Source: a virus | Length of the DNA: 41,499 nucleotides | Virus record (IMG/VR): IMGVR_UViG_3300045988_023006 | Location: 1 to 41,499 of that record | Strand: one strand, 5' to 3' | Shown: positions 8,354-41,499 of the stretch, piece by piece | Position numbering within the stretch: position 1 is the stretch's first letter | How the letters are laid out: the number at the start of each line of letters is the position of its first letter | The notes under the pieces: model-generated | What the model saw: only the letters and a program-made list of their open reading frames with translations | The model's database searches: none | What the model was told of the DNA's origin: nothing | Program-made: the position numbers and the translations under genes

Positions 8354-8514
8354 TTTTTGCCGTTAGACAGGGTCAACAGGCGGTCGTAGATTTCCTCGAA
8401 GAAATCAGCAACATTTTTTCCGCCGGCTTTGTCGGCAGATGTTGTTGAGCTTGTCATTTTGGCGATGACGATTTCTTTTGCGATGTCAAGCGCGTAACGC
8501 TTAATAGGATCCAT
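8350..8514 (-). CDS. Hypothetical 54-aa protein in the switch region (not in ORF track)
   Basis: ATG 8514 after AAAGGAGGTG. Product MDPIKRYALDIAKEIVIAKMTSSTTSADKAGGKNVADFFEEIYDRLLTLSNGKN. Its stop overlaps the stop of the convergent 46-aa ORF by 4 nt. Confidence 0.5.
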   Translation of the reverse strand: MDPIKRYALDIAKEIVIAKMTSSTTSADKAGGKNVADFFEEIYDRLLTLSNGKN

Positions 8515-8538
8515 GAGATCACCTCCTTTCTGTACTCC

Positions 8539-8568
8539 ATTTTACTACAGAGCGGAGGAGGTGCACAA
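8539..8568 (-). promoter_or_regulatory. Possible leftward promoter facing the PR-like promoter
   Basis: On the minus strand: TTGTGC (8568-8563), 18-nt spacer, TAAAAT (8544-8539). It lies upstream of the 54-aa ORF RBS. Confidence 0.35.
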
Positions 8569-8573
8569 CAGCA

Positions 8574-8798
8574 ATGAAAGGAGAGGATAAATTGAATTTT
8601 CCTGAAAACCTTGCTCGGCTGCAAGCCGAGCGCGGCGAGACGAATTACCGTCTTGCAAAAGAAATCGACGTATCGCAGACGTCGATCAAAAACTGGAAAG
8701 AGAGCGTGTGCCGCCCTCACCCGCGCCAAGTCAAAAAGCTGGCAAAGCACTACGGCGTTACCGTAGATGCGCTGCTAAAATCCAGCGATGGGCAGTAA
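8574..8798 (+). CDS. Cro-like XRE-family HTH regulator
   Basis: 74 aa. ..NFPENLARLQAERGETNYRLAKEIDVSQTSIKNWKES.. An alternative TTG start at 8592 has a better-spaced AAAGGAGAGG. Confidence 0.75.
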   Translation: MKGEDKLNFPENLARLQAERGETNYRLAKEIDVSQTSIKNWKESVCRPHPRQVKKLAKHYGVTVDALLKSSDGQ

Positions 8799-8904
8799 AA
8801 AAATGCCCCGCCCAATGTTGCAGCATCGAGCGGGACGGCGGAACAAATCTTAGGCTTAGATATGTGTCCTGTGGCTATTTTAGCACAGGGGAAAGGAAAA
8901 GGCA

Positions 8905-9057
8905 ATGAGTAAAAAGCCGGAATACAAAATCATTTGGGTCACGCCCCCCGACCCTGTAAAGCTGGGGACGATCATGGGCGAGATTTACGCCCGTGGAAGA
9001 GGGCTTGAGTTTGTCGGCCTTGTGCCGAACGAGAAGAAGTGTGGAGGTGCGAAATGA
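8905..9057 (+). CDS. Hypothetical 50-aa protein (not in ORF track)
   Basis: ATG 8905 after GAAAGGAAAAGG. Product MSKKPEYKIIWVTPPDPVKLGTIMGEIYARGRGLEFVGLVPNEKKCGGAK. Confidence 0.45.
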   Translation: MSKKPEYKIIWVTPPDPVKLGTIMGEIYARGRGLEFVGLVPNEKKCGGAK

Positions 9058-9152
9058 GCGCGTTTGCATGGGCGCTGACGTATATCGGGGCCGCTACGGT
9101 GAGTTATCTGTTTATGTGGCTGCTGGACAAACTGGACAGGCCGGGGAAGTAA
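9054..9152 (+). CDS. Possible 32-aa membrane peptide (not in ORF track)
   Basis: ATGA overlap with the upstream stop. RBS GGAGGTG. Product MSAFAWALTYIGAATVSYLFMWLLDKLDRPGK (one TM helix). Confidence 0.35.
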   Translation: MSAFAWALTYIGAATVSYLFMWLLDKLDRPGK

Positions 9153-9208
9153 AATTAATAGGGAGGAAAGACGATGCGGGACGTGCTGAAAGCGGCGGGG
9201 CGACCGGT

Positions 9209-9388
9209 ATGAGAAGCGCGATACAGTATAGCGAGCCGGAGCGCCCATTGGAGCCGAAGGACTACGATCTTCCCGTCTGCCCCGTGTGCGGGGAGGAGAC
9301 GGACACCTACTACAAAAACAAGGACGGCGTCATCGTGGGATGCGAGTTTTGCATCGACGCGGTGGACGCATGGGAGGAAAAGGAATGA
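9209..9388 (+). CDS. Small zinc-ribbon protein
   Basis: 59 aa from ATG 9209. Contains two CxxC pairs (CPVCGEE.., CEFCID..). Confidence 0.55.
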   Translation: MRSAIQYSEPERPLEPKDYDLPVCPVCGEETDTYYKNKDGVIVGCEFCIDAVDAWEEKE

Positions 9389-9876
9389 ATATGAGCTTGT
9401 ACCACATCGATCAGGAGCTGGAGAACCTGATCGACCAGGAAACCGGCGAGGTGCTTGATTTTGATGCGTTTGAGGCGCTGCAAATGGCGCGGGACGCCAA
9501 GATCGAGGGCGTACTCTGCTGGACAAAGAATCTGGCGGCGGAGGCAAAGGCTATCCGCGAGGAGGAGAAGGAGCTTGCCGAGCGGCGCAAGGCTATGGAG
9601 AGCAAGCGGGAAAAGCTGCTTGCCTATGCAGAACGGGCGCTGGGCGGCGCGGCGTTCCAGACGGCGCGGTGTGCCGTGACGTATCGCAAAAGCACGGCGG
9701 TGGAGATCACCGACATGGACGCTGTGGTGCAGTGGTGCATGGACAACGGCTACGACGGCAAGATCACCTTTGCCCAGCCCACGGTGAGTAAGACGGACAT
9801 CGCGCCGCTTCTCAAGTCCGGCGTGTCTGTGACCGGCGCGGAGCTGTGCGAGAAGCTGAACATGGGGGTGAAGTGA
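9385..9876 (+). CDS. Siphovirus Gp157-like protein
   Basis: 163 aa from ATG 9385 (ATGA overlap with the upstream stop). N-terminus MSLYHIDQELENLID.. and a coiled coil ..AKAIREEEKELAERRKAMESKREKL.., as in the Gp157 family found next to phage recombinases. Confidence 0.65.
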   Translation: MNMSLYHIDQELENLIDQETGEVLDFDAFEALQMARDAKIEGVLCWTKNLAAEAKAIREEEKELAERRKAMESKREKLLAYAERALGGAAFQTARCAVTYRKSTAVEITDMDAVVQWCMDNGYDGKITFAQPTVSKTDIAPLLKSGVSVTGAELCEKLNMGVK

Positions 9877-10526
9877 TGGATAACATGACGATCTACAATG
9901 CAGTTCGTAGTGTGCCGGACAGCGCCAAAAGCCGCATCGAGGCGGGGCGCTTGAAGGGCAAGACAGACATTAACCCCATGTGGCGCATCAAGGCGCTGAC
10001 AGAGCAGTTTGGGCCCTGCGGCTATGGCTGGAAATACGTTATCACTGACAAGAGGTTGGAGCAGGGCGCAAATGGCGAAGTAGCCGCATTTCTGGACATT
10101 GATCTGTTTGTAAAGGCAGGCTGCGCCTGGTCTGACGCTATCCCCGGCACTGGCGGCAGTGCGTTCGTGGCAAAGGAGAAGAACGGCCCATATACCTCCG
10201 ACGAGTGTTTTAAGATGGCGCTGACTGATGCTATCTCCGTGGCGTGTAAGGCGCTTGGATTTGGGGCGGACGTGTATTGGGACGCCGACAAGAGCAAGTA
10301 TGGCAAGCCGGATAAGTGCAAAAAGAAGCCGGATAACAAGGCAGATGCGCCGATGCTGTGCGAGCATTGCGGACTTCCCATTAAGTCGGTGAAGCGCGGG
10401 GACCGCGTGTATCCCACTAGCGAGATCGCGGAGAACTCCGTGAAGAAGTACGGCAAGCGGCTGTGCTGGGGCTGCATGAAGGCAGCCAACGCGACGGGGA
10501 ATAACCATGCAGCAGATAACGGTTGA
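9876..10526 (+). CDS. Rad52/Sak-family single-strand annealing protein with C-terminal zinc ribbon
   Basis: 216 aa from ATG 9876. ..LTEQFGPCGYGWKY.. and ..CFKMALTDAISVACKALGFGADVYW.. match Rad52/Sak hallmark motifs. C-terminus CEHCG..CWGC. Confidence 0.6.
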   Translation: MDNMTIYNAVRSVPDSAKSRIEAGRLKGKTDINPMWRIKALTEQFGPCGYGWKYVITDKRLEQGANGEVAAFLDIDLFVKAGCAWSDAIPGTGGSAFVAKEKNGPYTSDECFKMALTDAISVACKALGFGADVYWDADKSKYGKPDKCKKKPDNKADAPMLCEHCGLPIKSVKRGDRVYPTSEIAENSVKKYGKRLCWGCMKAANATGNNHAADNG

Positions 10527-11046
10527 TGCGGCGCGGTGGTCGCAGGACAGCGATGGGGCGTGGCTGTGTCTACGTGTGAAGTCTCCAGAGGCGGCAATGG
10601 AGTTGTGCGACACCATAAAGCCGGGGAAGGAGTACACCGCCACCATCAAAGGCAAGGGGCGGAGCCTCGATGCAAATGCCTACGCATGGGTACTGCTGGA
10701 CAAGCTGGCGGCGCACTACGGCGTTGCGAGAGAGAATGTATACCGGCAGGAGATACAGAGCATCGGCGGTGTAAGCGAGGTGCTGTGCCTGCGGGAAAAG
10801 GCGGTGGAAGCGTTCTGCCGGAGCTGGGAGCGGAACGGTATCGGCTGGATGACCGATACCGGCCCCAGCAAGCTCAAGGGCTGCGTAAACGTGACTGTAT
10901 GGTACGGCAGCTCCGTATACGACACGGAGCAGATGGCGCGGCTGATAGACGCCATTGTGCAAGACTGCCGGGATGTCGGCATTGAGACCATGACACCGCG
11001 AGAGCTGGATGCCCTCGTTAGCCGGTGGGGAGAGGTTAGCGTATGA
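10507..11046 (+). CDS. NinB/Orf-like recombination mediator
   Basis: 179 aa. ..KGRSLDANAYAWVLLDKLA.. resembles the lambda NinB RSLDQN..LW motif. Lies between the SSAP and SSB genes. Confidence 0.45.
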   Translation: MQQITVDAARWSQDSDGAWLCLRVKSPEAAMELCDTIKPGKEYTATIKGKGRSLDANAYAWVLLDKLAAHYGVARENVYRQEIQSIGGVSEVLCLREKAVEAFCRSWERNGIGWMTDTGPSKLKGCVNVTVWYGSSVYDTEQMARLIDAIVQDCRDVGIETMTPRELDALVSRWGEVSV

Positions 11047-11321
11047 ACGACAAAAGATGCTTTTTGTGCGGCCGGAATGACACCGGTGACCCGCTGGAGC
11101 GTCACCACATTTTTGGCGGCGCGAATCGGAAGAAAAGCGAGAAGTACGGCCTTGTGGTGTACCTGTGCGGCAATCGCTGCCACCGGAACGGGCGCGGCGC
11201 GGTACACAAGAACGGCGACCAGATGCGCCGTTTGAGACGGTACGGGCAGCTCAAGGCGATGGAGGAGCAGAGATGGACGGAGGCGGACTTTCGCCGCGAA
11301 TTTGGGAAAAGCTATTTATGA
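11043..11321 (+). CDS. Small HNH-type nuclease-like protein (Ref/RecA-dependent-nuclease-like)
   Basis: 92 aa. CFLCG..ERHHIFGGANRKKSEKYGLVVYLC..CH.. is an HNH/zinc-finger pattern. Confidence 0.5.
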   Translation: MNDKRCFLCGRNDTGDPLERHHIFGGANRKKSEKYGLVVYLCGNRCHRNGRGAVHKNGDQMRRLRRYGQLKAMEEQRWTEADFRREFGKSYL

Positions 11322-11334
11322 GAGGAGATAAGAG

Positions 11335-11745
11335 ATGCTGAACAAGATTTTCATCATGGGCCGGTTGACACGCGATCCGGAGCTGCGCAGGACACAGAAC
11401 GGTACAGCCGTCACCAGCTTTACACTGGCGGTAGACCGGGACTTTAAGAACGCGGACGGCACTAAGGACACGGATTTTATTGACGTGGTTGCATGGCGCA
11501 CCACCGCCGAGTTTGTGTCCAAGTATTTCTCCAAGGGGCGCATGGCCGTGGTGGAGGGCCGCTTGCAACTGCGGGACTGGACGGACAAGGACGGCAATAA
11601 GCGCCGGAACGCCGAGGTGCTGGCGGACAACATTTACTTTGGCGATGCCAAGAAGGACGCGGACAGCGGCGCCAAGAAATACGCGGGCGGACAGTTCGGG
11701 GAGGTGGACGAGGACTTCGACACGGACGACGATCCGCCGTTTTGA
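11335..11745 (+). CDS. ssb: Single-stranded DNA-binding protein
   Basis: 136 aa. OB-fold N-terminus (MLNKIFIMGRLTRDPELR..) and an acidic C-terminal tip DDDPPF. Confidence 0.92.
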   Translation: MLNKIFIMGRLTRDPELRRTQNGTAVTSFTLAVDRDFKNADGTKDTDFIDVVAWRTTAEFVSKYFSKGRMAVVEGRLQLRDWTDKDGNKRRNAEVLADNIYFGDAKKDADSGAKKYAGGQFGEVDEDFDTDDDPPF

Positions 11746-11761
11746 TAGGAGGTAGAGCGGC

Positions 11762-11977
11762 ATGGATTACTGGCACAAGCGGTACACCTGCCCATACTTT
11801 ACCAGCAGCGAGAAACGGCGGGTCTGCTGCGAGGGAGGTAGCCGCGTCAGCTTTGAGACGGGCGGCGCGGCATCCCGCTTCATGAGTCAATTCTGTGCCG
11901 GGGCGTGGGAGCATTGCACCATCGAACGGCACCTGACGGCCGAGTACGAAAGGCAGGAAGAAAAGAATGGGGAGTAG
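11762..11977 (+). CDS. Hypothetical Cys-rich protein
   Basis: 71 aa in the replication module. No family recognised. Confidence 0.45.
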   Translation: MDYWHKRYTCPYFTSSEKRRVCCEGGSRVSFETGGAASRFMSQFCAGAWEHCTIERHLTAEYERQEEKNGE

Positions 11978-12010
11978 GCGTATCGCCGAAGGAGTGAGAG
12001 GCGGTGCATA

Positions 12011-12646
12011 GTGGCTCTTGAGTACATCCCCTTTTATTACAGTTATCGCAAGAAATTAGAGAAACTTTCAGATCAAGAGGTAGGTCGGCTTGTACGGGCT
12101 TTGCTGAAATATGGCGAGACCGGAGAGACGGAGGAACTTACGGGACGGGAGTCAATCGCATTTGATTTTATTGCGGACGATATAAATAGGGCGAAAGCGG
12201 CGTATGACGAGAGATGCGCGAAGAACCAGCGCAACATCGAAAAGCGATATGCACGTCGCGAGGGTACGACCGTATACGATGGTATACAATCGAATACGAC
12301 CGTATACGAAACGTACCAAACCAAAGACAAAACCAAAGACAAAACCAAAGATAATACACTCCCACCTAACGGTGTGAGTGATACGCGCGCGAAGCGCTTC
12401 ACGCCACCATCCGCTGATGATGTATCCGCCTATGTTCAGGCGCAGGGCTATCACGTCAACGCAGATCGCTTTGTCGCCTTCTACGAGCAAAAGGGGTGGA
12501 TGGTAGGCAAGAACCGCATGAAAGACTGGAAAGCCGCCGTGCGGAATTGGGAGACGAGGTGGAAGGAGGAACACGGCGATGGACATAACGGCGATGCTGG
12601 AGCACCTGCGAAAAAATGGAATATCCCCGGAGAAGTCGTACTTTGA
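12011..12646 (+). CDS. Replication initiation / replisome-organizer-like protein
   Basis: 211 aa with a GTG start. N-terminus ..YIPFYYSYRKKLEKLSDQEVGRLVRALLKY.. and C-terminus ..FVAFYEQKGWMVGKNRMKDWKAAVRNWE.., typical of DnaD-like phage organizers. Lies upstream of the DnaC-like loader. Confidence 0.5.
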   Translation: MALEYIPFYYSYRKKLEKLSDQEVGRLVRALLKYGETGETEELTGRESIAFDFIADDINRAKAAYDERCAKNQRNIEKRYARREGTTVYDGIQSNTTVYETYQTKDKTKDKTKDNTLPPNGVSDTRAKRFTPPSADDVSAYVQAQGYHVNADRFVAFYEQKGWMVGKNRMKDWKAAVRNWETRWKEEHGDGHNGDAGAPAKKWNIPGEVVL

Positions 12647-20597: not shown

Positions 20598-20860
20598 AGG
20601 TACAGTGGATGATAGGACATGGTCATTCACGCGATTTCCCAATCATCACTTTTCCTCCCTTCTGTGCGCCGCCGGTATCGGGCGCACCTTACGGCACCGA
20701 AAGGTCATACCGGCACAAACAGCCTGTAGGGAAACCTATGGGCTGTTGTTATATGCCGTGCGCTCGTTGCACCCCGCGATCCGGGGCGGGAGGTCGCACC
20801 TCCCACACGGCACCAACAGGACCCCTCGCACCTCTCAACGATGTGACCCAGAGGGGACAT
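20598..20860 (+). ncRNA. Highly structured non-coding leader / candidate cis-regulatory RNA with a tRNA-like acceptor/T-arm minihelix
   Basis: Contains several strong helices, including a 13-bp GAAA-capped hairpin (20718-47). The element at 20755-20815 ends in an unpaired A plus CCA. ACGGCACC motifs recur. An anti-SD CCCCTC (20822-27) faces GAGGGG (20851-56). The overlapping ORF translation is P/C/R-rich junk. Confidence 0.5.
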
Positions 20861-21718
20861 ATGCGGTATAGGTGCCCCGTAAGGGGAGACCTCAGCACGT
20901 CAGTGGTAGAGGACAACTACGATCCTGTTTTACCGGCAGAGCCGAAGAGCAAACTGGGCGATGTGTACCAGCTTGGAGACCATCGCCTTATGTGCGGAGA
21001 TAGCACGTCTTTGGCAGACGTACAGAAGCTCTTGGGGGGGGCACAAATGGATTTGCTGCTCACAGACCCCCCGTACAATGTGGACTATCAGGGCACCGCC
21101 GGGAAGATTAAGAACGACAATATGGAGGATACGGCCTTCAGGCGTTTCCTGACGGATGCTTTCTCCAATGCGGCGATGGTCATGAAGCCCGGTGCTCCGT
21201 TCTACATCTGGCATGCAGACAGCGAGGGGTATAACTTCCGAGGCGCGTGCAGAGATGCGATGCTGCGTGTCCGGCAGTGCCTGATCTGGGTGAAAAACTC
21301 CCTTGTTATGGGGAGACAGGATTTCCAGTGGAAACATGAGCCTTGCCTGTATGGTGAGAGCGAGATTGAAGAGGAAGCGCATGAACCTTGTCTATACGGA
21401 TGGACGGAAGGCAAGAAGCACTATTTCTTCAAGAACCGCAGGCAGACAACTGTGCTGAATTTCGATAAGCCTGTCAAGTCTGCGGAGCATCCGACCATGA
21501 AGCCGATTAAGCTGTTTGATTACCAGATGCAGTGCTCCAGTAAGCCGGGTGAGAATGTTCTCGACCTGTTCGCTGGATCTGGAACAACGATCATGGCAGC
21601 GGAGCAGAATGGCAGACACGCTTTCTGCATGGAGTATGACCCGAAGTATGCCGATGTCATTATTGATCGATGGGAAAAGTTTACCGGAGAAAAGGCGGTA
21701 CTTCTGCATGACGATTGA
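20861..21718 (+). CDS. DNA methyltransferase, N6_N4_Mtase family
   Basis: About 285 aa from ATG 20861 (the start is uncertain; GTG 20903 is an alternative). ..GDVYQLGDHRLMCGDST.., LLTDPPYNV, ..EHPTMKPIKLF.., LDLFAGSGTT. Confidence 0.8.
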   Translation: MRYRCPVRGDLSTSVVEDNYDPVLPAEPKSKLGDVYQLGDHRLMCGDSTSLADVQKLLGGAQMDLLLTDPPYNVDYQGTAGKIKNDNMEDTAFRRFLTDAFSNAAMVMKPGAPFYIWHADSEGYNFRGACRDAMLRVRQCLIWVKNSLVMGRQDFQWKHEPCLYGESEIEEEAHEPCLYGWTEGKKHYFFKNRRQTTVLNFDKPVKSAEHPTMKPIKLFDYQMQCSSKPGENVLDLFAGSGTTIMAAEQNGRHAFCMEYDPKYADVIIDRWEKFTGEKAVLLHDD

Positions 21719-31935: not shown

Positions 31936-32189
31936 AGGCGTTCCTGCGGTATGCCCTTGCCCGCGCCAAACAGGACAGCGTGGACAAGGCATACCGGGTC
32001 TATGTGACAGACGCGCTCAAAGCAATCGCGGAAAACACGGCGCGGTACGTGGGGGGCGGCTATATCAAGGCGCGGTATGCCGACCTCATAGAGCCGAAGC
32101 CAGAGGAAACCAGGACGCCGGAGCAGATCGTTGACCGAATGAAAGAAAAAATCGCAAAGGTCGGAGGTGAGGACAATAAACCTGTTTGA
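31887..32189 (+). CDS. -1 frame extension of the chaperone (gpGT analogue)
   Basis: The -1 frame is open across the G stop and continues to 32189. Candidate slip site GAAAAAC at 31885-31891 (Lys AAA re-pairing on the A-run). Confidence 0.5.
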   Translation, partial: KTLWLCAGEYQGPRSVKAFLRYALARAKQDSVDKAYRVYVTDALKAIAENTARYVGGGYIKARYADLIEPKPEETRTPEQIVDRMKEKIAKVGGEDNKPV

Positions 32190-34191
32190 CTTGTATGCAA
32201 AAATTACGCTGGACACCAGCGGATACGAAAATGGGCTGGACAATGCTTCCGGCAAAGCGTCCGGCTTTGCCGACAAGTTGAAAAGCGGCCTTGCTACTGC
32301 GGCAAAGGTGGGAGCTGCGGCTTTGACAGCAGCGGCTACTGGCATGGCGGCGCTGACAAAGGCGTCCATTGACCAATATGCCGAGTATGAGCAATTAGTG
32401 GGTGGCGTCGATACCCTCTTTAAGACTGCATCGGACAAGGTGCAGGAGTACGCCGCAAACGCATACAAGACGGCTGGCATGAGCGCCAACGAATATATGG
32501 ACACGGTGACCAGCTTTTCGGCCTCCCTGCTCCAGAGCCTTGGCGGAGATACAGAAAAAGCAGCTCAAAAGGCGGACCAGGCCATCACCGACATGGCAGA
32601 CAACGCCAATAAGATGGGCACCGGCATGGAGATGATACAGAACGCCTATCAGGGTTTTGCAAAGCAGAACTACACCATGCTGGACAACCTAAAACTCGGG
32701 TATGGCGGCACCAAAGAGGAAATGGAGCGTCTGCTTGCGGACGCGGAGAAGCTGTCTGGGCAGAAGTTTGATATTTCATCTTACTCCGACATCGTAGACG
32801 CCATCCATGTGGTGCAGACGGAAATGGGCATTACCGGGACAACGGCAAAAGAGGCTGCGTCTACTATTCAGGGCAGCGTCAGCGCGGCAAAGTCCGCATG
32901 GAGCAACCTGATAACCGGCATTGCAGCCGACAACGCAGACCTTGATACGCTGATTGGCAATTTTGTCAGCAGCGTGGAGACGGCGGCTGGAAATATTATT
33001 CCGCGCGTTAGTGTCATGTTGGGCGGCATTTCACAGCTTGTTACATCTGCATCTACCACTATTATCCCGATGGTCATAACAACCATCACAGACAACCTGC
33101 CTGCGCTTTTGCAGGCGGCGGTTGCGCTTGTCGGCGCATTGGGACAGGGTATCATTGATAGCCTACCTGCAATTACGCAAGCAGCAATCGACATTCTTTT
33201 CTTCCTTGCGAATGGCCTGATAGAAAACCTGCCCACGCTTATTGACGGCATTGTGCAAGTGACTTTGACGATTGTGCAGATGCTGACAAGCCCGGACTTT
33301 TTGACGCAACTCATTGAAACGGCAATCTTGCTGATTATGACGCTTGCGCAGGGCCTGATTGACGCGATTCCGCAGCTTATCGCGGCAGTACCTATGATTA
33401 TTGGCAACTTGCTCGCCGCAATCATTGTAGAGCTGCCGAACATTATCCAGATGGGCATTGATCTTCTGTTTGCGCTGATTGACGGAATTATCAAGTGCAT
33501 CCCGGAGCTGGTCGCGGCAGTCCCTACGCTGATTATTGCGTTCGTCAACGGCATCGTGAACAACCTTGACAAGATCATCCTTGCAGCGCCGCAGATCATT
33601 GTATCGCTGATTACCGGCATTATCGGGGCAATCCCGGAATTGATTGCAGCCGTCCCGCGCGTTATCGCTGCTATTGCCGACACAATCAGAAACTACGACT
33701 GGGGCGGCATCGGTAGAAACATCGTTCAGGGGCTGAAAGACGGTATCGCCGGAATGTGGGACAATATCAAGGATTGGTTCAACGAAAAGGTGAATAGCCT
33801 TGTCGGCGGCGTGAAGCGCATTTTGGGCATCCACTCCCCTTCCAAGGTCTTTGCCGGAATCGGCGGTTTCATGGCCGAAGGTCTGGGCGAAGGCTTTAGC
33901 GATGAATTCGCGTCTGTGAAAAATGACATTGAAGGCAGCATGAATTTTGACGCTGGAACCATTACAGCAGATGCAAACATCAGCAGAAACTATACAAGTG
34001 GCTCTTACGGAGCGGCAAGCACAAGCGGGGGTGGCGATTCCGGCAGAATTGTAATGCTGCTGGAACAGTATTTGCCTATGTTGGCAAATATGAAAGTCAT
34101 CATGGACAGTGGCCAGGTTATCGGTTTGCTTGCCCCAGGCATGGATGAAGAACTGGCCAAAATCAATGCAAGGAAGGCAAGGGCTGTATGA
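32167..34191 (+). CDS. Tape measure protein
   Basis: 674 aa with a GTG start per the track. Helical N-terminus and long hydrophobic A/I/L-rich repeats (..IPELIAAVP.. recurs). Confidence 0.9.
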   Translation: MRTINLFDLYAKITLDTSGYENGLDNASGKASGFADKLKSGLATAAKVGAAALTAAATGMAALTKASIDQYAEYEQLVGGVDTLFKTASDKVQEYAANAYKTAGMSANEYMDTVTSFSASLLQSLGGDTEKAAQKADQAITDMADNANKMGTGMEMIQNAYQGFAKQNYTMLDNLKLGYGGTKEEMERLLADAEKLSGQKFDISSYSDIVDAIHVVQTEMGITGTTAKEAASTIQGSVSAAKSAWSNLITGIAADNADLDTLIGNFVSSVETAAGNIIPRVSVMLGGISQLVTSASTTIIPMVITTITDNLPALLQAAVALVGALGQGIIDSLPAITQAAIDILFFLANGLIENLPTLIDGIVQVTLTIVQMLTSPDFLTQLIETAILLIMTLAQGLIDAIPQLIAAVPMIIGNLLAAIIVELPNIIQMGIDLLFALIDGIIKCIPELVAAVPTLIIAFVNGIVNNLDKIILAAPQIIVSLITGIIGAIPELIAAVPRVIAAIADTIRNYDWGGIGRNIVQGLKDGIAGMWDNIKDWFNEKVNSLVGGVKRILGIHSPSKVFAGIGGFMAEGLGEGFSDEFASVKNDIEGSMNFDAGTITADANISRNYTSGSYGAASTSGGGDSGRIVMLLEQYLPMLANMKVIMDSGQVIGLLAPGMDEELAKINARKARAV

Positions 34192-34850
34192 TAGGAAAAG
34201 TATTTTTTGACGGAAAAGACACTTACACAGAATACGGCCTGCTTCTTGCGAGCAAGTCCATTTCTTTGCCGGAAGTCCGCACGAATATGATTGATGTTCC
34301 GGGCCGGGACGGTCTGCTGGACGCTTCCGAGGTGTTGACCGGCGAAGTGACCTACAAAAACCGCACCATTGTACTGAAGCTCACCGGCGTGGACACGGTT
34401 AGCGGCAAGAAATGGCCTGCCACAATTTCTGACTTTTGCAACAAAGTCCACGGAAAGCGCGTGAAAGTGACCTTCCCCGAGGACACCGCCCATTATTACA
34501 GTGGGCGGTGCTCCGTTGGGCAGGTGGAGCTTGTCAAAATAAAGCAGACAATACCTGTTACTGTTGATTGCGATCCGTGGAAATACAAGAACGCAAAAAC
34601 CACGGTCACGGGGACCGTGCCCGAATCGGGCACGCTGTCCCTGACCCTGGCCAACGAGCGCCGGCCGGCGGTGCCCACCGTGGAGGTGTCGGCGGCTGCA
34701 ACGCTGACCCTCGGCGGCAAGGACATCGCGGTGGCAGCCGGCAGCCATCGCAGCCTGGACATCCGTCTGGCGGCGGGCAGCAACACCCTTGCCGTCACGG
34801 CCGCAGCCGGGACCACAGTGTCCGTCACCTATCAGGAGGCATCGCTATGA
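34188..34850 (+). CDS. Distal tail protein (Dit)
   Basis: 220 aa. N-terminus ..FDGKDTYTEYGLLL..IDVPGRDG.. is typical of the siphovirus tail family. ATGA overlap with the tape measure stop. Confidence 0.75.
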   Translation: MIGKVFFDGKDTYTEYGLLLASKSISLPEVRTNMIDVPGRDGLLDASEVLTGEVTYKNRTIVLKLTGVDTVSGKKWPATISDFCNKVHGKRVKVTFPEDTAHYYSGRCSVGQVELVKIKQTIPVTVDCDPWKYKNAKTTVTGTVPESGTLSLTLANERRPAVPTVEVSAAATLTLGGKDIAVAAGSHRSLDIRLAAGSNTLAVTAAAGTTVSVTYQEASL

Positions 34851-36652
34851 GCTACACTGGCGCGGTATGCGGCAAGGCTATTGCCGGGCTTGCCGTCTGT
34901 GGCACGGACCCCCAGGAGACTGCGCAGGGCTTTGTCGGTTATCAACTGCGTTACGGGGATTACATCCTGTACGATCCGCGCGGCGCCAACGAGACGGACC
35001 GGCTGCGCGCCTCGGCGGCGTCGGTGGACCTTACCGCCGGCAAGGCGGGCTCCATGGCGTTCACGCTGCCGCCGGATCACCCCTACCGGGACAAGCTGCC
35101 CTATATGCGCCCCGGGCTGGAACTGCTGCAGGGCCGCTATGTGGTGTGGCGGGGCCGCATCACCTCCCAGGTGTGCGATTTCACCAACAGCCTGAAGATA
35201 TCGGCGGAGGGCATCATGGCCGTGCTGAACGATACCACAGTGCCACCGTTCACGTTTCCGGACGATTTCGCCGATGAGGCAGACTATCAGGCGGCCGCCA
35301 ACAGCGGCAACGTGGTGGATTACCTGTTCCGCTGGCTCCTGACGCAGCACAATGCCAAGGCCTCAGCCGAACAGCAGATCAAGCCCGGCGTGTGTACGGT
35401 GACGGATGCCAACAACTACATCACCCGCAGTTCCACCAAGTATCTTACCACCATGGATGCCCTGACCTCCAGGCTTTCCGGATCGTCCCTGGGCGGGTAT
35501 CTGCTGATCCGCTACGAGTCGGACGGCAACTACCTGGATTACTACGCAGATCTTCCGCTCACCAATGCCCAGGCCGTTACCTTCGGGGCAAACCTCCTGG
35601 ACCTGGAGCGCCAGCTCACCGGCACCGGCATCTACACCGCCATCCTGCCGGTGGGCAAGGACGGCCTGACCATCACGGAGTTGGCCGACGGAGATCTAAC
35701 GGACGATCTGGTCAAGGAGGGCCCTTACGTCTGGTCTCGGGCGGCCGTCCAGAAGTACGGCTGGATATGCCCCGGTCCCACAGACTGGCAGGACGTCACC
35801 GTTGCCGCGAATCTCCAGTCTTATGCGGCGGCCCGGCTGGCCACATCCGGCTGGGCACTGGAGGAATCCATCACCTGCAAGGCCATCGACCTACACGTTA
35901 CGGATGCCGCTGTCGCTGCCTGGCGGGTAGGCCGGTACACCATGCTGGCCACCACGCCCCACGGCATCCGGGCGGCCATGCCTCTGCTGCAAATGCACAT
36001 TGATCTCTTGGACCCGGCGCAGACCACCGTCACCATGGGCCGGACGCGGCGTACCTTTACCGGCGACGTGGAGGACGAGCGCAACCGCGTATCCCAGGGC
36101 ATGGAGGAGGTACGGCAGGAGACCGAGGAGCGGATCAACACCGTGCAGCAGATCCTCACCGAACGTATGACGCAGATCTCCCAATCGGACCGGCAGATCC
36201 TCCTGGAGGCGCTGGAGCAATATGTGGAGATCGGGGATTTCGAGTCCTACAAGCGTGTCATGGATGCCACACTGGCCGTTCTCCCCGACCAGATCCGCAT
36301 GGAGGTCTCTGAGGAGATCACGGAGCAGGTGGAGGACGCCACCGGAGACATCCGGCAGTCCGTCCGCACCATGAACCAGTATATGTCCTTCACGGCCGCC
36401 ATGGGGATGTTGCTGGGCAGTGAGGGCGATCCCGTGAAAGTGCAGATCAACAACCAGGGCCTGAACATCCTCCGGGAGACGCTGGCTCTGCTATCCATCA
36501 ATCAGCGGGGCGTATACACGCCATCTCTGTATATCCGCCCCATGGACCCGGACGATCCCACCGCCGGGTGCCTGTATCTGGGCAATCTGGTGGTCCGGGT
36601 GAACCCGGACGGCTCCGTGGTAGGCGCGAGGGGGGTGAATGCCAATGGGTGA
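34847..36652 (+). CDS. Tail-associated protein (Tal / prophage tail endopeptidase-like)
   Basis: 601 aa from ATG 34847 (ATGA overlap; the track ORF starts spuriously at 34568). Supported by its position after Dit. Confidence 0.7.
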   Translation: MSYTGAVCGKAIAGLAVCGTDPQETAQGFVGYQLRYGDYILYDPRGANETDRLRASAASVDLTAGKAGSMAFTLPPDHPYRDKLPYMRPGLELLQGRYVVWRGRITSQVCDFTNSLKISAEGIMAVLNDTTVPPFTFPDDFADEADYQAAANSGNVVDYLFRWLLTQHNAKASAEQQIKPGVCTVTDANNYITRSSTKYLTTMDALTSRLSGSSLGGYLLIRYESDGNYLDYYADLPLTNAQAVTFGANLLDLERQLTGTGIYTAILPVGKDGLTITELADGDLTDDLVKEGPYVWSRAAVQKYGWICPGPTDWQDVTVAANLQSYAAARLATSGWALEESITCKAIDLHVTDAAVAAWRVGRYTMLATTPHGIRAAMPLLQMHIDLLDPAQTTVTMGRTRRTFTGDVEDERNRVSQGMEEVRQETEERINTVQQILTERMTQISQSDRQILLEALEQYVEIGDFESYKRVMDATLAVLPDQIRMEVSEEITEQVEDATGDIRQSVRTMNQYMSFTAAMGMLLGSEGDPVKVQINNQGLNILRETLALLSINQRGVYTPSLYIRPMDPDDPTAGCLYLGNLVVRVNPDGSVVGARGVNANG

Positions 36653-38441
36653 GCTGTACGGCTCCAAATCCACATACGGCTGGCAGCTGTGGCTTGGGTA
36701 TACCATCCAGCAATCCCGCAGCAACAACCGCAGCACCATTGCCCTGTCGCTGCAGATCTACGACGGCACCGGCGAGAGCTATAACCAGGCGGCCAACAGC
36801 TGCTATTACGTCTTACAGGGCACCAAGGTGTACCATCCCTACAGCTACACCGCCAAGGGCTGGTACGATCTGGGCACCAAGACCATCACCGTGGACCACG
36901 ATGCCAAGGGCGAGGCCACGGTAACACTGTCCGCTGAGTGGCACAGCGGCTTTACCTCTCAATGGACGCCAGCGTCTCTGTCTGTATCCGGCAAGGTCAC
37001 GCTGCCTACCATCCCCCGGGCATCCTCTTTGGCTGTCCCGGCCCTGACGTTGGGCAGCCCTGCCACACTGACCGTCACCAAGGCAGACAGCAGCTACACA
37101 CACAAGATCACCTACGCCTGGGGCACGCACTCCGGCGTGGTGTCAGCAGAGACGGGCGCGACGTCCATTACCTGGACGCCGCCCCTGGAACTGGCCAGCG
37201 ACATCCCCAACGCCGCCAGCGGTGTGGGTACCCTGACCATTACCACATACAGCGGTGATACGGCCTTGGGCAGTCAGTCCTATAGCTTTGCCGCCTCCGT
37301 GCCCTCCAGCGCGGCCCCTGTGGCCACCGTGGCGCTCTCGGACGCTGGGGGGTATGCAGATACCTACGGAGCCTACGTGCAGACCAAGAGCCGCCTAAAG
37401 GCCGTCACGACGGCCAACGGGAAATACGGGGCGACGGTCAAGGGCTATACCCTGGCTATCTCCGGCCTGACGGCCACCGGGGCCACAGCCACTACTGGCG
37501 CGCTGCCGGAGTCCGGCGCGGTGGCCTATGCCGTCACCGTTACAGACTCCCGGGGGCTGTCCACCATCCTACGAGGGACCATCACCGTGCTGCCCTACGC
37601 CGCGCCCGGTGTGCGATCCATCAGCACCGCCCGCTGTGATGCAGACGGCACGGACAACCCCGCCGGAGATCATGCCAAGGTGTCCTTTGTGGGCGCGGTG
37701 GCGCCGCTGGCCAGCCAGAACACGGCCGCCTATGTCATCCGCTACCGGGCCCAGGGGGCGGACACCTGGAGCTCCCAGGCCGTGCCGGACGCCGCCGGGC
37801 AGTATACACCCAGCGCCTACGGCGTCATCCCGGCCGCGGTGGACACCGTCTATGAGGTGTGCATAGCCGTCACCGACGCACTGGGCAGCACAGCCAGCCT
37901 GATTGTGGTGCTGCCATCGGCGCAGGTGCTGTTCCGGACGGCGCCGGCTGTGGACGGTCTGTCCATCGGCCAGTATCTGACCGAGGCGGCCACGCTGATT
38001 GTGGGCGGACTCATCAAGCACCTGAAGCTGCCCGGTCCCGCGGCGGTGTTGTTCGACGGCAAGTCCCTCCTGGACTACCTCCACCCCGTCGGCAGCATCT
38101 ACCAGTCCACGGATGCCACGCCTCCAGCGGACCTGTTTGGCGGCACCTGGGAGCAGATCAAGGACAGGTTCCTCTTGGCGTCAGGCGACTCCCACGCGGC
38201 TGGCTCCACCGGCGGCGAGGAGGAGCACATCCTGACGGCGGCGGAGATGGCAAACCACACCCACGGCTACGATTACACGGGCCAGAGCATTACGGAGGGC
38301 GTCAACGCCATCCGCCTGTATCAGGCCGCGAGTACCCAGTACAACGCTTACACGGGCAAGGCCACGTCCAACTGCGGCGGCCAGGCCCACAACAATATGC
38401 CGCCGTACCTGGCCGTGTACACATGGCGCAGGACGGCATAA
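36639..38441 (+). CDS. Tail fibre / receptor-binding protein
   Basis: About 600 aa (ATG 36645 is better spaced from its RBS). The N-terminal part resembles siphovirus DUF859. The C-terminus ..HPVGSIYQS..LFGGTWEQIKDRFLLA..GGEEEHILT..MANHTH..HNNMPPYLAVYTWRRTA is tail-collar/baseplate-type. Confidence 0.7.
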   Translation: MPMGELYGSKSTYGWQLWLGYTIQQSRSNNRSTIALSLQIYDGTGESYNQAANSCYYVLQGTKVYHPYSYTAKGWYDLGTKTITVDHDAKGEATVTLSAEWHSGFTSQWTPASLSVSGKVTLPTIPRASSLAVPALTLGSPATLTVTKADSSYTHKITYAWGTHSGVVSAETGATSITWTPPLELASDIPNAASGVGTLTITTYSGDTALGSQSYSFAASVPSSAAPVATVALSDAGGYADTYGAYVQTKSRLKAVTTANGKYGATVKGYTLAISGLTATGATATTGALPESGAVAYAVTVTDSRGLSTILRGTITVLPYAAPGVRSISTARCDADGTDNPAGDHAKVSFVGAVAPLASQNTAAYVIRYRAQGADTWSSQAVPDAAGQYTPSAYGVIPAAVDTVYEVCIAVTDALGSTASLIVVLPSAQVLFRTAPAVDGLSIGQYLTEAATLIVGGLIKHLKLPGPAAVLFDGKSLLDYLHPVGSIYQSTDATPPADLFGGTWEQIKDRFLLASGDSHAAGSTGGEEEHILTAAEMANHTHGYDYTGQSITEGVNAIRLYQAASTQYNAYTGKATSNCGGQAHNNMPPYLAVYTWRRTA

Positions 38442-38454
38442 AGGGGGGTTACAG

Positions 38455-38985
38455 ATGGCGCTAAAAAAGACAAATTATGTAAACGGGAAAACGGTTATAA
38501 CTGCGGAAAACTTAAACGATATACAAGATGCAATTATCGCACTGGAAAGCGCTGGTGATGACGGCACTCACCCCGTTTATTACATTGTCCTTGCTGGCAG
38601 CTACCCAAACTACACCTGCCCGGTGGCGATGGCCGACATCAAGGCGGCGTATGAGGCGGGTAAGGTGCTGGAATGCCGGTGCGCGATGGGACCATACACC
38701 GCAACGCTGCCACTATTCGTCCCAATGCCCAGTGCAAACACATGGATATTCTCCGGCTCCGGTGCGCTGACCGCAATGGATTTCCCGGCGCAATCGCTGA
38801 CTATCGCCATCGTCAATGGCACCGTGCAGGCAAGTGATACGCGACTGGCATCCAAAGATGATATCCCCGCCGCTCTGCCCAATCCCAACGCTCTGACGGT
38901 TAAGATTGGCAGCACTATCGTGACTTATGATGGCAGCAGCGCCCAGACCGTGGAGATAGCGGACGGCACGGAGGTGAGTTACTGA
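38455..38985 (+). CDS. Fibre-associated hypothetical protein
   Basis: 176 aa. The N-terminus ..NYVNGKTVITAENLNDIQDAIIALE.. is common at fibre protein N-termini. Confidence 0.55.
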   Translation: MALKKTNYVNGKTVITAENLNDIQDAIIALESAGDDGTHPVYYIVLAGSYPNYTCPVAMADIKAAYEAGKVLECRCAMGPYTATLPLFVPMPSANTWIFSGSGALTAMDFPAQSLTIAIVNGTVQASDTRLASKDDIPAALPNPNALTVKIGSTIVTYDGSSAQTVEIADGTEVSY

Positions 38986-40835
38986 TGCAAAAGAAACTGT
39001 ATGAAGAAGCCTCCGTACAGGCGATTGCAAACGCCATCCGGGCAAAGAACGGCGAGGCGACCACCTACAAAATCGGGGAGATGGCAGATGCTGTGCGGGC
39101 GCTCTCCGGGAGCGAAGCAGTCGAATGGCATCAGTGCCCGGAAGCGGTACGCAATTACCTTGCCAACGTGACCTATGACCCGAGCGACTATACGTCCTCG
39201 GCCATTGAGACCTATGCCACAGGAGACGTGCAGAGCAACCCAAACGGCGTGCAGGCTGGCGGGGTAGCGCACTACAACGAGGTGCCAAACGTAGAGACGC
39301 CGTGGGCAGCAGGCGGAAAGGCCGGGACGTTGAAACCACTGGATGCCGTGCGATGGATCAAATCGCCGACGCGGAACGCGAGAGACCTTGGAGGGTGGCC
39401 ATGCGACGGGGGAACAGTACAATACGGCAAGTTGTTCCGCGGCGGTGAGGTGGCAACGAGCGACACGGAGTTTGTTAGGACACTGCACGACGAAATCGGC
39501 ATCCGCGCCGAGCTGGAACTGCAGGGGACGGATGTGGCAGAGGATTACTCTGTAATCGGATCGGATGTGGACTTCTGTTGCCCGACGGATGGAGGTTCCT
39601 ACTGGGCCTACTATTCCATCACAAGCAAAGCGTCTATGAGACAGGCGTTCCGTTTTATCTTTGACAGCGTCGCCAGAGGCAGACCTGTGTATTTCCACTG
39701 CTCAGCTGGGGCGGACCGGACCGGCACAATCGCGTGCTTGATCGAGGCACTCCTCGGCATGAGCCAGAGTGACATTGACCGGGATTACGAGTTGACATCC
39801 TTCAACGGAGCTACCTATTTGCGCAAACGCTGTGGCCGCGAGTACGCAACAGATCAGTGGGAGTGTGGCTACAAAAACCTGATTACAGCGATCACCGCAC
39901 TCAGCGGTCAGACATTCCGCGATAAGGTGATAAATTACATTGCCTCGCTCGGTTTTACCGCAGCGGAGATCAATGGATTCCGCGCGGCCATGATCGATGG
40001 TACGCCTGAGACGGTATCGCCCGTTGTGGCGACGTACACGGTAAGTAAGTCCATCAGCGGTGCGGAGATCAGCAACAGCGCGACAAGCGCGACGCAATAT
40101 CAGCCGTACTCGGCAGAGATCGCACCGACCGGCGGGAAGGTCATCAGCAGCGTAAAAGTCATGATGGGAGGGCAAGACGTCACAGCGGAAGTATTTTCCG
40201 GGACGCAAGCGATCCGGCGGTACGCTGTGACCAAAACGCTGAAAAACTGCACGATCGACAACGCAAAAAAAGCGGCAGTAGACGGAGAAGGGTATGGCGC
40301 GACGATCACTCCCGTAGGCGGGTATACGCTTACCGGGGCGACGATAACAATCGTGATGGGAGGTGTCGACGTGTCGACATATTATTCTGGGGGCAAAATC
40401 GCGATCCCAAGTGTGACCGGGGACATTGCTATCACAGTGACGGCAGTGCCAACAACATCGGCTTATACAAACCTATTTGATCCAAGTGGCATCCACGCAG
40501 GATATCGTATCAACAGCGGCGCGGCGCTGGAAGCCAACTCTTCGCAGAATGTATCGAACAATATTGATCTCGGCGGAAGCGGCGTAACCGTGCGCATAAA
40601 AGGGTCTAAAGCAAACACGGATGCGTCAACATATCGAATCTGCTACTTCAACGGGAACAACTGGACCGGAGCAATACACCTTCAAAATGCTGATGGGTAC
40701 GCTTATGATGCCGTAACAGACACGATTACTTTCACGAGCAGCAGCAATGTGCTTCACACAAAGCTCAGGTTCAGTTATCCTTCGACAACAGATTCGGCGG
40801 CGATTGTGGTGACGGTCAACGAGCCGATTACATAA
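38985..40835 (+). CDS. Tail fibre-like protein carrying a tyrosine-phosphatase-fold (Y_phosphatase3-like, CX5R) domain, two Ig-like repeats and a C-terminal beta-rich domain
   Basis: 616 aa. Fibre-type N-terminus (..AIANAIRAKNGEATTYKIGEMADAVRAL). ..NARDLGGW.. and VYFHCSAGADRTGT (39696-39725 encodes HCSAGADRTG). Repeated ..ITP.GGY.L....I.V.MGG.DV.. modules. Confidence 0.7.
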   Translation: MQKKLYEEASVQAIANAIRAKNGEATTYKIGEMADAVRALSGSEAVEWHQCPEAVRNYLANVTYDPSDYTSSAIETYATGDVQSNPNGVQAGGVAHYNEVPNVETPWAAGGKAGTLKPLDAVRWIKSPTRNARDLGGWPCDGGTVQYGKLFRGGEVATSDTEFVRTLHDEIGIRAELELQGTDVAEDYSVIGSDVDFCCPTDGGSYWAYYSITSKASMRQAFRFIFDSVARGRPVYFHCSAGADRTGTIACLIEALLGMSQSDIDRDYELTSFNGATYLRKRCGREYATDQWECGYKNLITAITALSGQTFRDKVINYIASLGFTAAEINGFRAAMIDGTPETVSPVVATYTVSKSISGAEISNSATSATQYQPYSAEIAPTGGKVISSVKVMMGGQDVTAEVFSGTQAIRRYAVTKTLKNCTIDNAKKAAVDGEGYGATITPVGGYTLTGATITIVMGGVDVSTYYSGGKIAIPSVTGDIAITVTAVPTTSAYTNLFDPSGIHAGYRINSGAALEANSSQNVSNNIDLGGSGVTVRIKGSKANTDASTYRICYFNGNNWTGAIHLQNADGYAYDAVTDTITFTSSSNVLHTKLRFSYPSTTDSAAIVVTVNEPIT

Positions 40836-40836
40836 A

Positions 40837-40857
40837 AGGAGGGCGATTAGCCCTCCT
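40837..40857 (-). terminator. Hairpin whose T-tract lies on the minus strand
   Basis: AGGAGGGC-gatta-GCCCTCCT. On the minus strand it is followed by TTTTAT; on the plus strand by GCTTGA. Confidence 0.5.
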
Positions 40858-40930
40858 GCTTGAGCGCCTGCGTTATCAGGTGCTCGATGTAGTTTGAGAC
40901 GCTGCGGTCCTCCGCTTCTGCGGCGGCCCG
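40847..40930 (-). pseudogene. Start-less remnant resembling the C-terminal half of a ribbon-helix-helix (CopG/Arc-type) protein
   Basis: The minus frame reads ..RAAAEAEDRSVSNYIEHLITQALKQEG*, with its stop inside the hairpin. No ATG, GTG or TTG occurs in-frame upstream. Confidence 0.35.
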
Positions 40931-41113
40931 GTGATTGTCACAGTCAACGAGGAAATCGTTAACAAACAGGTGTGGGTGGGTACCCCCATGCAGTTCGGCA
41001 ATGAGATCAAGCAGAACATGGCCAATGTCTTTGTGCAGGCCCCCAACGGCACCCTGTACACCATCGCCGTGGACAACAGCGGCAATCTGTCGGCCACGGC
41101 ATTCACGCAGTAA
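40931..41113 (+). CDS. Small protein, possibly an orphaned fibre C-terminal module
   Basis: 60 aa with a GTG start. ..VIVTVNEEIVNKQ.. echoes the last residues of the preceding fibre (..AIVVTVNEPIT). GC3-rich from about 40970. Confidence 0.45.
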   Translation: MIVTVNEEIVNKQVWVGTPMQFGNEIKQNMANVFVQAPNGTLYTIAVDNSGNLSATAFTQ

Positions 41114-41149
41114 TCACGCCGCCCAGAGCGGCAGGAAAGGAGATTTTAC

Positions 41150-41499
41150 ATGAAAGAAAACACGATCAAGGCCGCGCTGGCGGCCGCGCTGGGGGCGCTG
41201 TGCGCCTACGGAGTGCAGCTGCTGGTGCCGGTGCTGGTGCTGGTGGTGGTGATGCTGCTGGACTACGCCACGGGCATGACCAAGGCATGGAACGCCGGGG
41301 AGCTGTCCTCCCGGGTGGGCCTGCGGGGCATCCTGAAGAAGGTGGGCTACTTGGTCATCGTCGCCGTGGCCGCTGTGGTAGACTGGCTGCTGCGCTACGG
41401 AGCCGACACCCTGGGCTGGGACTGGCCGGTGGAGTTCCTGTTTGCCAGCATCGTCATCATCTGGCTGGTGATCAACGAGCTGCTGTCCATCCTGGAGAA
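41150..41499 (+). CDS. Holin, 5' portion (continues at 56..179 of the window)
   Basis: ATG 41150 after GAAAGGAG. MKENTIKAALAAALGALCAYGVQLLVPVLVLVVVMLLDYATG.. with TM helices. The frame is open to the window end. Confidence 0.8.
   Translation, partial: MKENTIKAALAAALGALCAYGVQLLVPVLVLVVVMLLDYATGMTKAWNAGELSSRVGLRGILKKVGYLVIVAVAAVVDWLLRYGADTLGWDWPVEFLFASIVIIWLVINELLSILE
41445..41499. repeat. Terminal direct repeat, identical to 1..55
   Basis: Same 55-mer as the window start. The holin reading frame is continuous across the junction. Confidence 0.95.

Follow-up and report, generated by a model that had tools for sequence, protein, structure and literature searches.

In this study, we analysed the whole 41,499-nucleotide (nt) IMG/VR virus record IMGVR_UViG_3300045988_023006 (the window) and found that its gene at 38985-40835 on the plus strand encodes a 616-aa protein with a PtpB-like cysteine phosphatase domain, and that this gene is the final one of the tail operon, directly before the lysis cassette. 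Enzyme-armed tail proteins in a swappable slot are well known, while the cysteine-phosphatase catalytic class is new to such proteins. As judged from residue conservation, the phosphatase is very probably catalytically active, and the genomic position and build of the protein suggest that it is probably present on the virion; it is about as likely as not that it acts on a phosphorylated polymer or lipid of the envelope. The reading that we favour, with roughly half of our confidence, is that the protein is displayed on the virion as an active phosphomonoesterase and acts on cell-envelope polymers that carry phosphate groups.

Phosphatase domain and active site

The phosphatase domain spans residues 126-340 (39360-40004, plus strand). 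Pfam, a PDB profile and Foldseek all confirm the assignment to the Y_phosphatase3 / PtpB-like fold that had been made in the first-pass annotation from motifs in the sequence. In particular, the Pfam model PF13350 (Y_phosphatase3) matched residues ~128-337 with an E-value of 8.3e-25 and 88.6 bits, at a gathering cut-off of 22.2 bits; weaker, sub-threshold echoes came from other Cys-phosphatase families, and the model of PTP-like phytases (PTP, protein tyrosine phosphatase), PF14566, was not among the Pfam matches at E ≤ 0.1. A sequence search of PDB matched PtpB of M. tuberculosis and the C. difficile PTP 8dhi, and the profile of 58 homologues, compared with PDB sequences, retrieved 8dhi at E = 5e-14 with both the N-x-RDLGG motif and the P-loop aligned. 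The AlphaFold2 model of the whole protein has a mean pLDDT of 83.6, with values of mostly 82-96 over the phosphatase domain, and a Foldseek search with this model yielded 8dhi/8dhj and PtpB (2oz5/1ywf) with probability 1.0 and target TM-scores of 0.5-0.6. The sole PHROG match of the whole protein, a "thymidylate synthase" family at E = 0.003 over the P-loop, was rejected as spurious.

Over 3,300 relatives were significant in a homologue search; the top 120 among them are full-length and 47-95% identical, and each carries PF13350. Conservation was assessed in an alignment of 58 homologues (48-95% identity), and P-loops were tallied in 196 distinct sequences. The motifs quoted in the first-pass annotation are present in the open reading frame (ORF). 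The N-terminal signature of the family, NARDLGGW (N131-W138; 39375-39398, plus strand), follows the pattern N-x-RD-x-GG in 195 of the 196 distinct homologues and aligns to NFRDLGG of 8dhi. The P-loop HCSAGADRTG (H238-G247) lies at 39696-39725 on the plus strand, as had been claimed. The roles of its Cys239 as the nucleophile, of Asp244 as the in-loop acid/base and of Arg245 are assigned after the signature of the atypical lipid phosphatases (ALPs), HCXXGKDR[TA]G, where Asp serves as the acid/base and Lys matters for binding the substrate (PMC6409689). We also considered whether the residue equivalent to PtpB D82 ("CCPTDGG") could be the general acid; this position is not conserved among homologues, and the invariant in-loop D244 was preferred (PMC6409689).

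In the 58 aligned homologues, H238, C239, G242, D244, R245 and T246 of the P-loop and N131, R133, D134, G136, G137 and W138 of the N-terminal signature are invariant. The P-loop consensus is HC-x2-G-[A/M]-DR-[TA]-[GA], and Cys, Asp and Arg are kept in all 196 distinct homologues. The first-pass annotation had taken non-conserved catalytic residues in homologues as the mark of a binding-only pseudo-phosphatase; their joint invariance argues for catalysis rather than for a dead binding module. Ala243 occupies the position of the ALP Lys, where all 196 homologues have A or M and never Lys. Because the in-loop Lys is never present, the protein is classed as a member of PF13350 outside the ALP subgroup. 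A substrate other than phosphoinositides would be expected.

Besides the catalytic C239, four further cysteines (C51, C140, C251 and C422) are invariant in the 58 homologues. C140 lies within a GGWxCDGG motif, and C251 is twelve residues past the nucleophile. The additional cysteines may be redox-protective or structural partners.

Compared with the known PtpB-like/Y_phosphatase3 enzymes (PtpB 1ywf/2oz5, C. difficile PTP 8dhi/8dhj, and the ALPs), the phage protein has the same Pfam family, fold, N-x-RDLGG motif and HC-x2-G-x-DR-[TA]-G P-loop with the in-loop Asp. It differs in the Ala/Met that replaces the ALP Lys in every close homologue, and in that its domain, with 15-20% identity to the solved structures, is located inside a 616-aa structural-module protein, whereas the PtpB-like enzymes are secreted or cytoplasmic proteins of ~250-300 aa. 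Our literature search found no paper for the PDB entries 8DHI/8DHJ.

Position of the gene and build of the protein

The phosphatase gene has an ATG start at 38985, which overlaps by 1 nt the TGA stop of a 176-aa ORF (38455-38985, plus strand), and a strong Shine-Dalgarno sequence, GGAGGTG (38970-38976), 8 nt 5' of the ORF. By these two elements (38970-38987, plus strand), read from the sequence, the gene is translationally coupled to the upstream tail operon. No promoter of its own was found ahead of the gene, and no signal peptide on its protein. The gene order is tape measure, Dit, Tal, DUF859, 176-aa ORF, phosphatase, holin, amidase, and the earlier description of the gene as the last large ORF of the tail module agrees with both the ORF list and the annotated neighbours. 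Two bases past the phosphatase stop, between the tail operon and the lysis genes, there is a perfect 8-bp G+C-rich hairpin, AGGAGGGC-gatta-GCCCTCCT (40837-40857); the terminator scan reported it on the minus strand only, and the plus-strand 3' sequence is not T-rich.

In IMG/VR, at least 191 viral contigs carry a relative, and the family comprises hundreds of sequence clusters. We reduced 85 loci to 46 with proteins less than 90% identical, 45 of them from other elements, called the plus-strand neighbours, and scanned three downstream and two upstream ORFs at each locus against Pfam. Downstream, the 45 loci carry Amidase_2 (18), Amidase_3 (7) and 21 holins in five families, as well as SPOR, SLH, PG_binding, SH3_3, M23 and GH25 domains. 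Upstream are Collagen (14), DUF859 (5), Gp10_C (4), CBM_5_12 (3) and GDSL lipase (2) domains, and also Sipho_Gp37, Prophage_tail, Phage_fiber_rpt and YadA_head. A homologue with 59% identity (P0028) has the same order, that is, DUF859/Gp10_C, three small ORFs, phosphatase, holin and Amidase_3+SPOR, and a 49% identical one (P0096) resides in a quite different element, 3' of capsid and collagen-like genes and 5' of M23 and C39-like peptidases. Therefore, the phosphatase gene is a mobile module always landing at the fibre/lysis boundary.

The strongest single evidence for a receptor-binding or receptor-modifying position of the phosphatase protein is a swap in this slot. MT835537, from a human faecal virome (L006), has 80% nt identity to the window at the 3' end of the DUF859 gene and 90% in the holin-endolysin region, and none between them. 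The exchanged cassette is 38447-41135 here (176 aa, phosphatase and 60 aa) and 8390-12566 in MT835537, where it encodes proteins of 387 aa, 172 aa (CBM_5_12), 602 aa (Pect-lyase_RHGA_epim / Beta_helix) and 203 aa. The pectate-lyase beta-helix is the classic depolymerase fold of tailspikes.

By the model and the alignments, the protein has five parts: a helical N-terminus (residues 1-45), a conserved region (46-125), the phosphatase (126-340), beta-repeats (341-489) and a beta-sandwich (490-616). The mean pairwise identity in the 58 homologues is 0.68, 0.59 and 0.59 for the three core parts (46-489), 0.40 for residues 1-45 (10th percentile 0.09) and 0.30 for the C-terminal domain (10th percentile 0.13). 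Since the proximal end has to fit the particle and the distal end the host surface, receptor-binding tail proteins are expected to combine a conserved body with ends that can be exchanged.

The N-terminal segment (38985-39119, plus strand) is a putative virion-attachment adaptor. It is mosaic, with at least six unrelated types across the 46 loci, and no clear co-variation of the N-terminal type with the upstream neighbour was seen in these loci. The initial label of a typical fibre N-terminus could not be verified, as the segment matches only PHROG 29123 (function unknown; E = 1.5e-5), and tblastn with its 45 residues against 50,697 GenBank phages returned no match. The following region, WHQCPEAVRNYL...LKPLD..RW (39120-39359, plus strand), is helical at residues 46-82 and continues as a conserved linker at residues 83-118, modelled with low confidence (pLDDT <50 for 83-86 and 88-118); in the 58 homologues its invariant positions are W48, C51, P86, N98, P101, T105, G114, P118, D120 and R123.

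Behind the phosphatase, residues 341-489 (40005-40451, plus strand) form two tandem repeats with beta strands in the model (~364-410 and 426-474; 33% identical, E = 2e-6), and one homologue (P0055) has an additional copy. The two repeats had been described as Ig-like; the repetition and the beta-rich structure hold, and the Ig-like label is not confirmed by any Pfam model, the best match being Big_12 at E = 0.05. The variable C-terminal domain (residues 490-616 and the stop; 40452-40835, plus strand), a putative cell-surface-binding domain, was correctly described as beta-rich: modelled separately, it is a confident beta-sandwich with a pLDDT of 93. Against PDB, this model has no significant fold neighbour, and the best match, at E = 0.038, is a Cna-type adhesin sandwich. 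The BFVD matches liken the repeats and the sandwich to beta-sandwich modules found in Dit, in tail-tube extensions and in tail fibres, and also in SGNH-esterase tail proteins. When the N-terminus, the repeats and the C-terminal domain were scanned leniently against Pfam, nothing usable came up, and PHROGs offered no family that would be informative about the 176-aa ORF or about the phosphatase protein as a whole, its repeats or its C-terminal domain.

Relatives, proposed function and alternatives

Residues 120-345, used as the query of an exhaustive search, matched 8,237 clusters at E ≤ 1e-3, 327 of them at E ≤ 1e-30. The 148 representatives retrieved have a median length of 609 aa, and HCxxGADR is present in 133 of the 147 P-loops counted. 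Among these distant representatives, Cys is kept in 148/148 and Asp in 146/148; classical signal peptides are found in 14, and two or three tandem phosphatase domains in 4 (tandem copies are among P0141, P0259, P0284, P0228 and P0272). According to Pfam, the phosphatase is fused with Phage_fiber_rpt (P0218, P0192), with GDSL esterases (P0242, P0276) and, weakly, with a collagen segment (P0285). In P0228, a pilin-type N-terminal methylation motif is ahead of the phosphatase. P0272 combines a calcineurin-like metallophosphoesterase with two phosphatase domains; its gene is surrounded by housekeeping genes of a Bacteroidota-like kind, and it resembles a secreted enzyme of bacterial origin. The signal peptides in bacterial relatives point to an extracellular role, and we regard the subfamily as a probable extracellular PtpB-like branch, repeatedly built by phages into fibre-type proteins, sometimes beside a phosphodiesterase-type enzyme.

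A 98-kb phage-like contig (L088, 8001-14359) encodes a 1032-aa protein with Phage_fiber_rpt and phosphatase domains (P0218), a 302-aa ORF and a 781-aa Metallophos + Big_2 protein. Two different phosphoesterase folds are thus found within one apparent structural operon.

The term tail-fibre-like, used for the protein in the first-pass annotation, is indirectly but well supported by the operon coupling, the context in 45 loci, the mosaic ends, the swap with a beta-helix protein and the relatives fused to Phage_fiber_rpt or collagen; in the protein itself, no fibre-type elements (trimeric shaft, collagen, fibre repeats) were seen. In the function that we favour, the modules would follow each other as an exchangeable N-terminal adaptor, a conserved neck, the PtpB-like phosphatase, two beta-repeats and a variable distal beta-sandwich, with the distal domain and the repeats holding the virion on a cell-envelope glycopolymer. 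Cys239 would attack as the nucleophile, Arg245 and the P-loop backbone would bind the phosphate, and Asp244 would act as the acid/base, so that terminal phosphates (phosphomonoesters) would be taken off a phosphorylated wall polysaccharide, a teichoic-acid-like polymer or a glycolipid. The outcome would be a receptor that is exposed, or one that is modified or destroyed, as done by depolymerases and esterases from the same slot. As the domain alone cannot depolymerise, the likely roles would be limited to three: receptor unmasking, a local change of the surface charge, and receptor destruction on debris or lysogens.

In PTP chemistry, the thiol-phosphate intermediate needs a terminal phosphate, and the bonds hydrolysed are those of monoesters or terminal anhydride phosphates. 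This argues for phosphomonoester removal and not for depolymerisation of teichoic-acid diesters, and the diester cleavage in teichoic acids that had been suggested for this protein is unlikely on these chemical grounds. More speculatively, there could be a two-enzyme route, in which a diesterase, represented by the Metallophos neighbours and fusions in relatives, creates the monoester that the phosphatase then removes. An exposed thiol enzyme would plausibly be workable in the anoxic gut. Glucan phosphatases (laforin, SEX4/LSF2) are alike in combining a Cys-phosphatase with carbohydrate-binding modules and removing phosphomonoesters from a polysaccharide; unlike the phage protein, they are eukaryotic, intracellular and of the DSP subfamily, and are a mechanistic analogy only.

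To our knowledge, the virion enzymes that provide access to receptors are glycosidases, lyases, esterases/deacetylases, peptidoglycan hydrolases and few phosphodiesterases. Those acting on teichoic acid include the glycerophosphodiesterase of Lactobacillus phage Ld17 and phi29 gp12 (PMC6116005), and a review of virion enzymes covers glycerophosphodiesterase and teichoic-acid-degrading appendages and no phosphatase (PMC6116005). With the enzyme-bearing fibres and spikes (beta-helix depolymerases, SGNH/GDSL esterases, Ld17, phi29 gp12), the phosphatase protein shares the slot, the arrangement of an N-terminal anchor, an enzyme and a variable distal domain, and the collagen-like or esterase fibre neighbours. 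The differences are the Cys-phosphatase fold, the expected hydrolysis of phosphomonoesters instead of glycosidic, ester or phosphodiester cleavage, and the lack of a beta-helix or an obvious trimerising shaft.

Several considerations speak against the favoured function. Cys-phosphatases, as far as we know, do not cut phosphodiesters, which dominate teichoic acids, and we know of no documented abundant surface phosphomonoesters in these hosts. Oxidation is a further problem, as a thiol enzyme is sensitive to it when carried on an extracellular particle. The repeats and the C-terminal domain match no known receptor-binding or carbohydrate-binding fold in Pfam or PDB. The protein itself shows nothing that would trimerise it, neither a coiled coil nor a beta-helix or collagen, and it may therefore be a monomer that serves as a decoration or accessory instead of a classical fibre. 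Among cultured phages in GenBank, none was found with the gene, the search giving two weak, irrelevant matches only. A GenBank match to "Enterococcus phage Efs 1-1-1" was discarded as context evidence: the contig is unverified, and the protein is a stand-alone phosphatase of 250 aa rather than a fibre protein. Lastly, closeness to the lysis genes is equally expected of a lysis accessory protein.

Such a protein, made late and absent from the virion, would be released via the holin lesion and dephosphorylate wall polymers or lipid carriers, aiding the endolysin or stopping the progeny from re-adsorbing to debris. It would explain why the gene always adjoins holin and endolysin genes, with M23 and C39-like peptidases directly downstream in one locus (L002), and it is consistent with the missing signal peptide and with an endolysin-like layout, in which a catalytic domain is followed by variable, binding-like C-terminal domains. 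However, the gene is translationally coupled to the upstream fibre-domain gene and is separated from the lysis genes by the hairpin and ~300 nt; the mosaic N-terminal adaptor would have no role in a soluble enzyme; MT835537 has a beta-helix spike protein in the same slot, and relatives are fused to Phage_fiber_rpt and collagen. No peptidoglycan hydrolase or known wall-binding Pfam domain was found in the phosphatase protein, and a separate Amidase_3+SPOR endolysin is encoded. We consider the lysis-stage role unlikely.

Slightly less probable still is a module that binds without turnover, the phosphatase fold being used as a lectin-like pocket that recognises phosphate and so tethers the virion to phosphorylated polymers of the wall. 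The P-loop and its Arg are indeed the phosphate-binding elements, the ALP Lys is missing, the equivalent of the PtpB D82 loop acid is not conserved, and pseudo-phosphatases are common in the PTP superfamily. Yet known pseudo-phosphatases usually lose the Cys, while here Cys and the in-loop Asp persist both in all 196 homologues and, with two exceptions for Asp, in the 148 distant representatives, and catalysis is the best explanation for the joint purifying selection on C, D and R.

The first-pass annotation had also offered an ejected effector, which would enter the cell with the DNA and dephosphorylate host proteins (BY-kinases, Ser/Thr/Tyr signalling, abortive-infection kinases) or membrane lipids. 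In its favour, the nearest relatives with solved structures are phosphatases of proteins or lipids, PtpB being a secreted effector, and Cys-phosphatases are packaged by viruses of eukaryotes, for example VH1 by vaccinia and a PTP by baculovirus. However, a protein of 616 aa in which the phosphatase is followed by two beta-repeats and a hypervariable distal beta-sandwich has the build of a surface-binding and not of an ejection protein, the Lys that binds phosphoinositides is missing, extracellular action is indicated by the signal peptides and pilin-like N-termini of bacterial relatives, and the gene follows that of Tal instead of lying among genes for internal or ejection proteins; hence, we hold this alternative to be quite improbable. 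A moron with an ecological function, e.g., a phytase-like enzyme or one releasing dietary or host-mucus phosphate to the benefit of the lysogen, is the least credible, for although Y_phosphatase3 enzymes can be promiscuous, with one phytase-active member (PMC6409689), and P0272 appears to be a chromosomal secreted enzyme in a Bacteroidota-like housekeeping context, the phage gene has no signal peptide and no own promoter, is embedded in a late structural operon, and keeps a strict fibre-slot position in 45 loci, unlike the moron pattern.

The literature search revealed no prior description of a phage tail phosphatase of the Y_phosphatase3 fold and no study of the homologues, in line with the first-pass remark that no fibre with a cysteine-phosphatase domain had been characterised. 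Homologues have already been named automatically in databases, as "Tyrosine phosphatase family protein" (for example, DAF86419.1 from Siphoviridae sp. ctCNm48; UniProt A0A8S5QN55, A0A8S5V632 and A0A8S5T7U1), "protein-tyrosine phosphatase" or "hypothetical protein". These virome entries are true homologues of ~600 aa, with 27-59% identity and a shared architecture; the difference is that their names are automatic only.

Tentatively, and at somewhat less than an even chance, this may be the first recognised class of virion-borne cysteine phosphatases: tail proteins of gut-anaerobe phages that edit phosphate decorations on Gram-positive envelope polymers at adsorption, in some phages jointly with neighbouring or fused metallophosphodiesterases and esterases. 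If so, the cysteine phosphatase would add a new chemistry to virion enzymes and would point to phosphorylated surface polymers as receptors of, or barriers to, phages in the Oscillospiraceae and related gut Firmicutes, which have been little studied. In human-gut viromes the family is abundant, so that it could matter for predicting the host range of gut phages, and its distal domains could be ready probes which, together with the enzymes, would help to dissect the envelopes of uncultured-like anaerobes. Moreover, the PtpB-like fold, best known as a virulence effector, would have a large extracellular, non-signalling branch with the P-loop HCxxGADR. The significance is limited by the lack of an experimental handle.

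Genome and neighbouring genes

The genome is complete and circularly assembled, ~41.4 kb long with 55% G+C; bases 1-55 are identical to 41445-41499, forming a 55-bp terminal overlap. The virus is a temperate siphovirus, most likely with a gut Oscillospiraceae-type host. A clue to the host is the 77% nt identity of the head genes to the Flavonifractor phage Chenonceau. The scan of a genome collection, made with a single-protein query reaching close relatives only, gave one locus, in an Oscillospiraceae metagenome-assembled genome, and the host assignment is approximate because of this single locus. The source samples identified were human-gut and Hadza metagenomes.

The structural module is that of a siphovirus, encoding the large terminase, portal, Mu-F-like minor head protein, major head and major tail proteins, tape measure (32167-34191) and Dit (34188-34850). 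It continues on the plus strand with a Prophage_tail (Tal-like) protein at 34850-36652, with an uncertain start codon (Pfam PF06605, PHROG 3558), and a DUF859 + Gp10_C tail protein at 36639-38441 (Pfam, PHROG 372), which is the upstream edge of the variable slot. A large serine recombinase (4646-6001, minus strand) is the likely integrase. Just 5' of the terminase gene, a DNA methyltransferase is encoded at 20609-21718 (PHROG 498, with a ParB-like N-terminal match).

The 176-aa ORF upstream of the phosphatase gene shares 51% identity (E = 1e-42) with residues 27-158 of a collagen + GDSL-esterase protein of 686 aa in another phage (L054), encoded there directly upstream of the phosphatase homologue. 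By this similarity to the N-terminal domain of collagen/esterase fibre proteins, the ORF appears to be a stand-alone N-domain of a fibre protein, and it may either serve the phosphatase protein as an adaptor or be a truncation remnant.

Downstream, the lysis cassette consists of a Phage_holin_4_1 holin, which runs from 41150-41499 across the circular junction to 179 (plus strand; junction translation, Pfam E = 2.4e-32), and an Amidase_3 + SPOR endolysin (172-855, plus strand; Pfam). Between the phosphatase and holin genes, there is an orphan ORF of 60 aa (40931-41113), with no homologue in the 85 related loci and a weak match to PHROG 574 only. It begins with MIVTVNEEIV, resembling the conserved C-terminal end (..VVTVNEPIT) of the phosphatase protein, and may have been left behind as a scar when the distal domain was exchanged in the past.

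Finally, the 49% identical homologue is found in L002 (3199-21860), inside a 1.78-Mb contig, with a rolling-circle Rep gene upstream. The order there is terminase, a 637-aa protein, capsid, collagen-like, phosphatase, M23, C39-like/Cu_amine_oxidN1 and a 3292-aa LPD-domain polyvalent protein.

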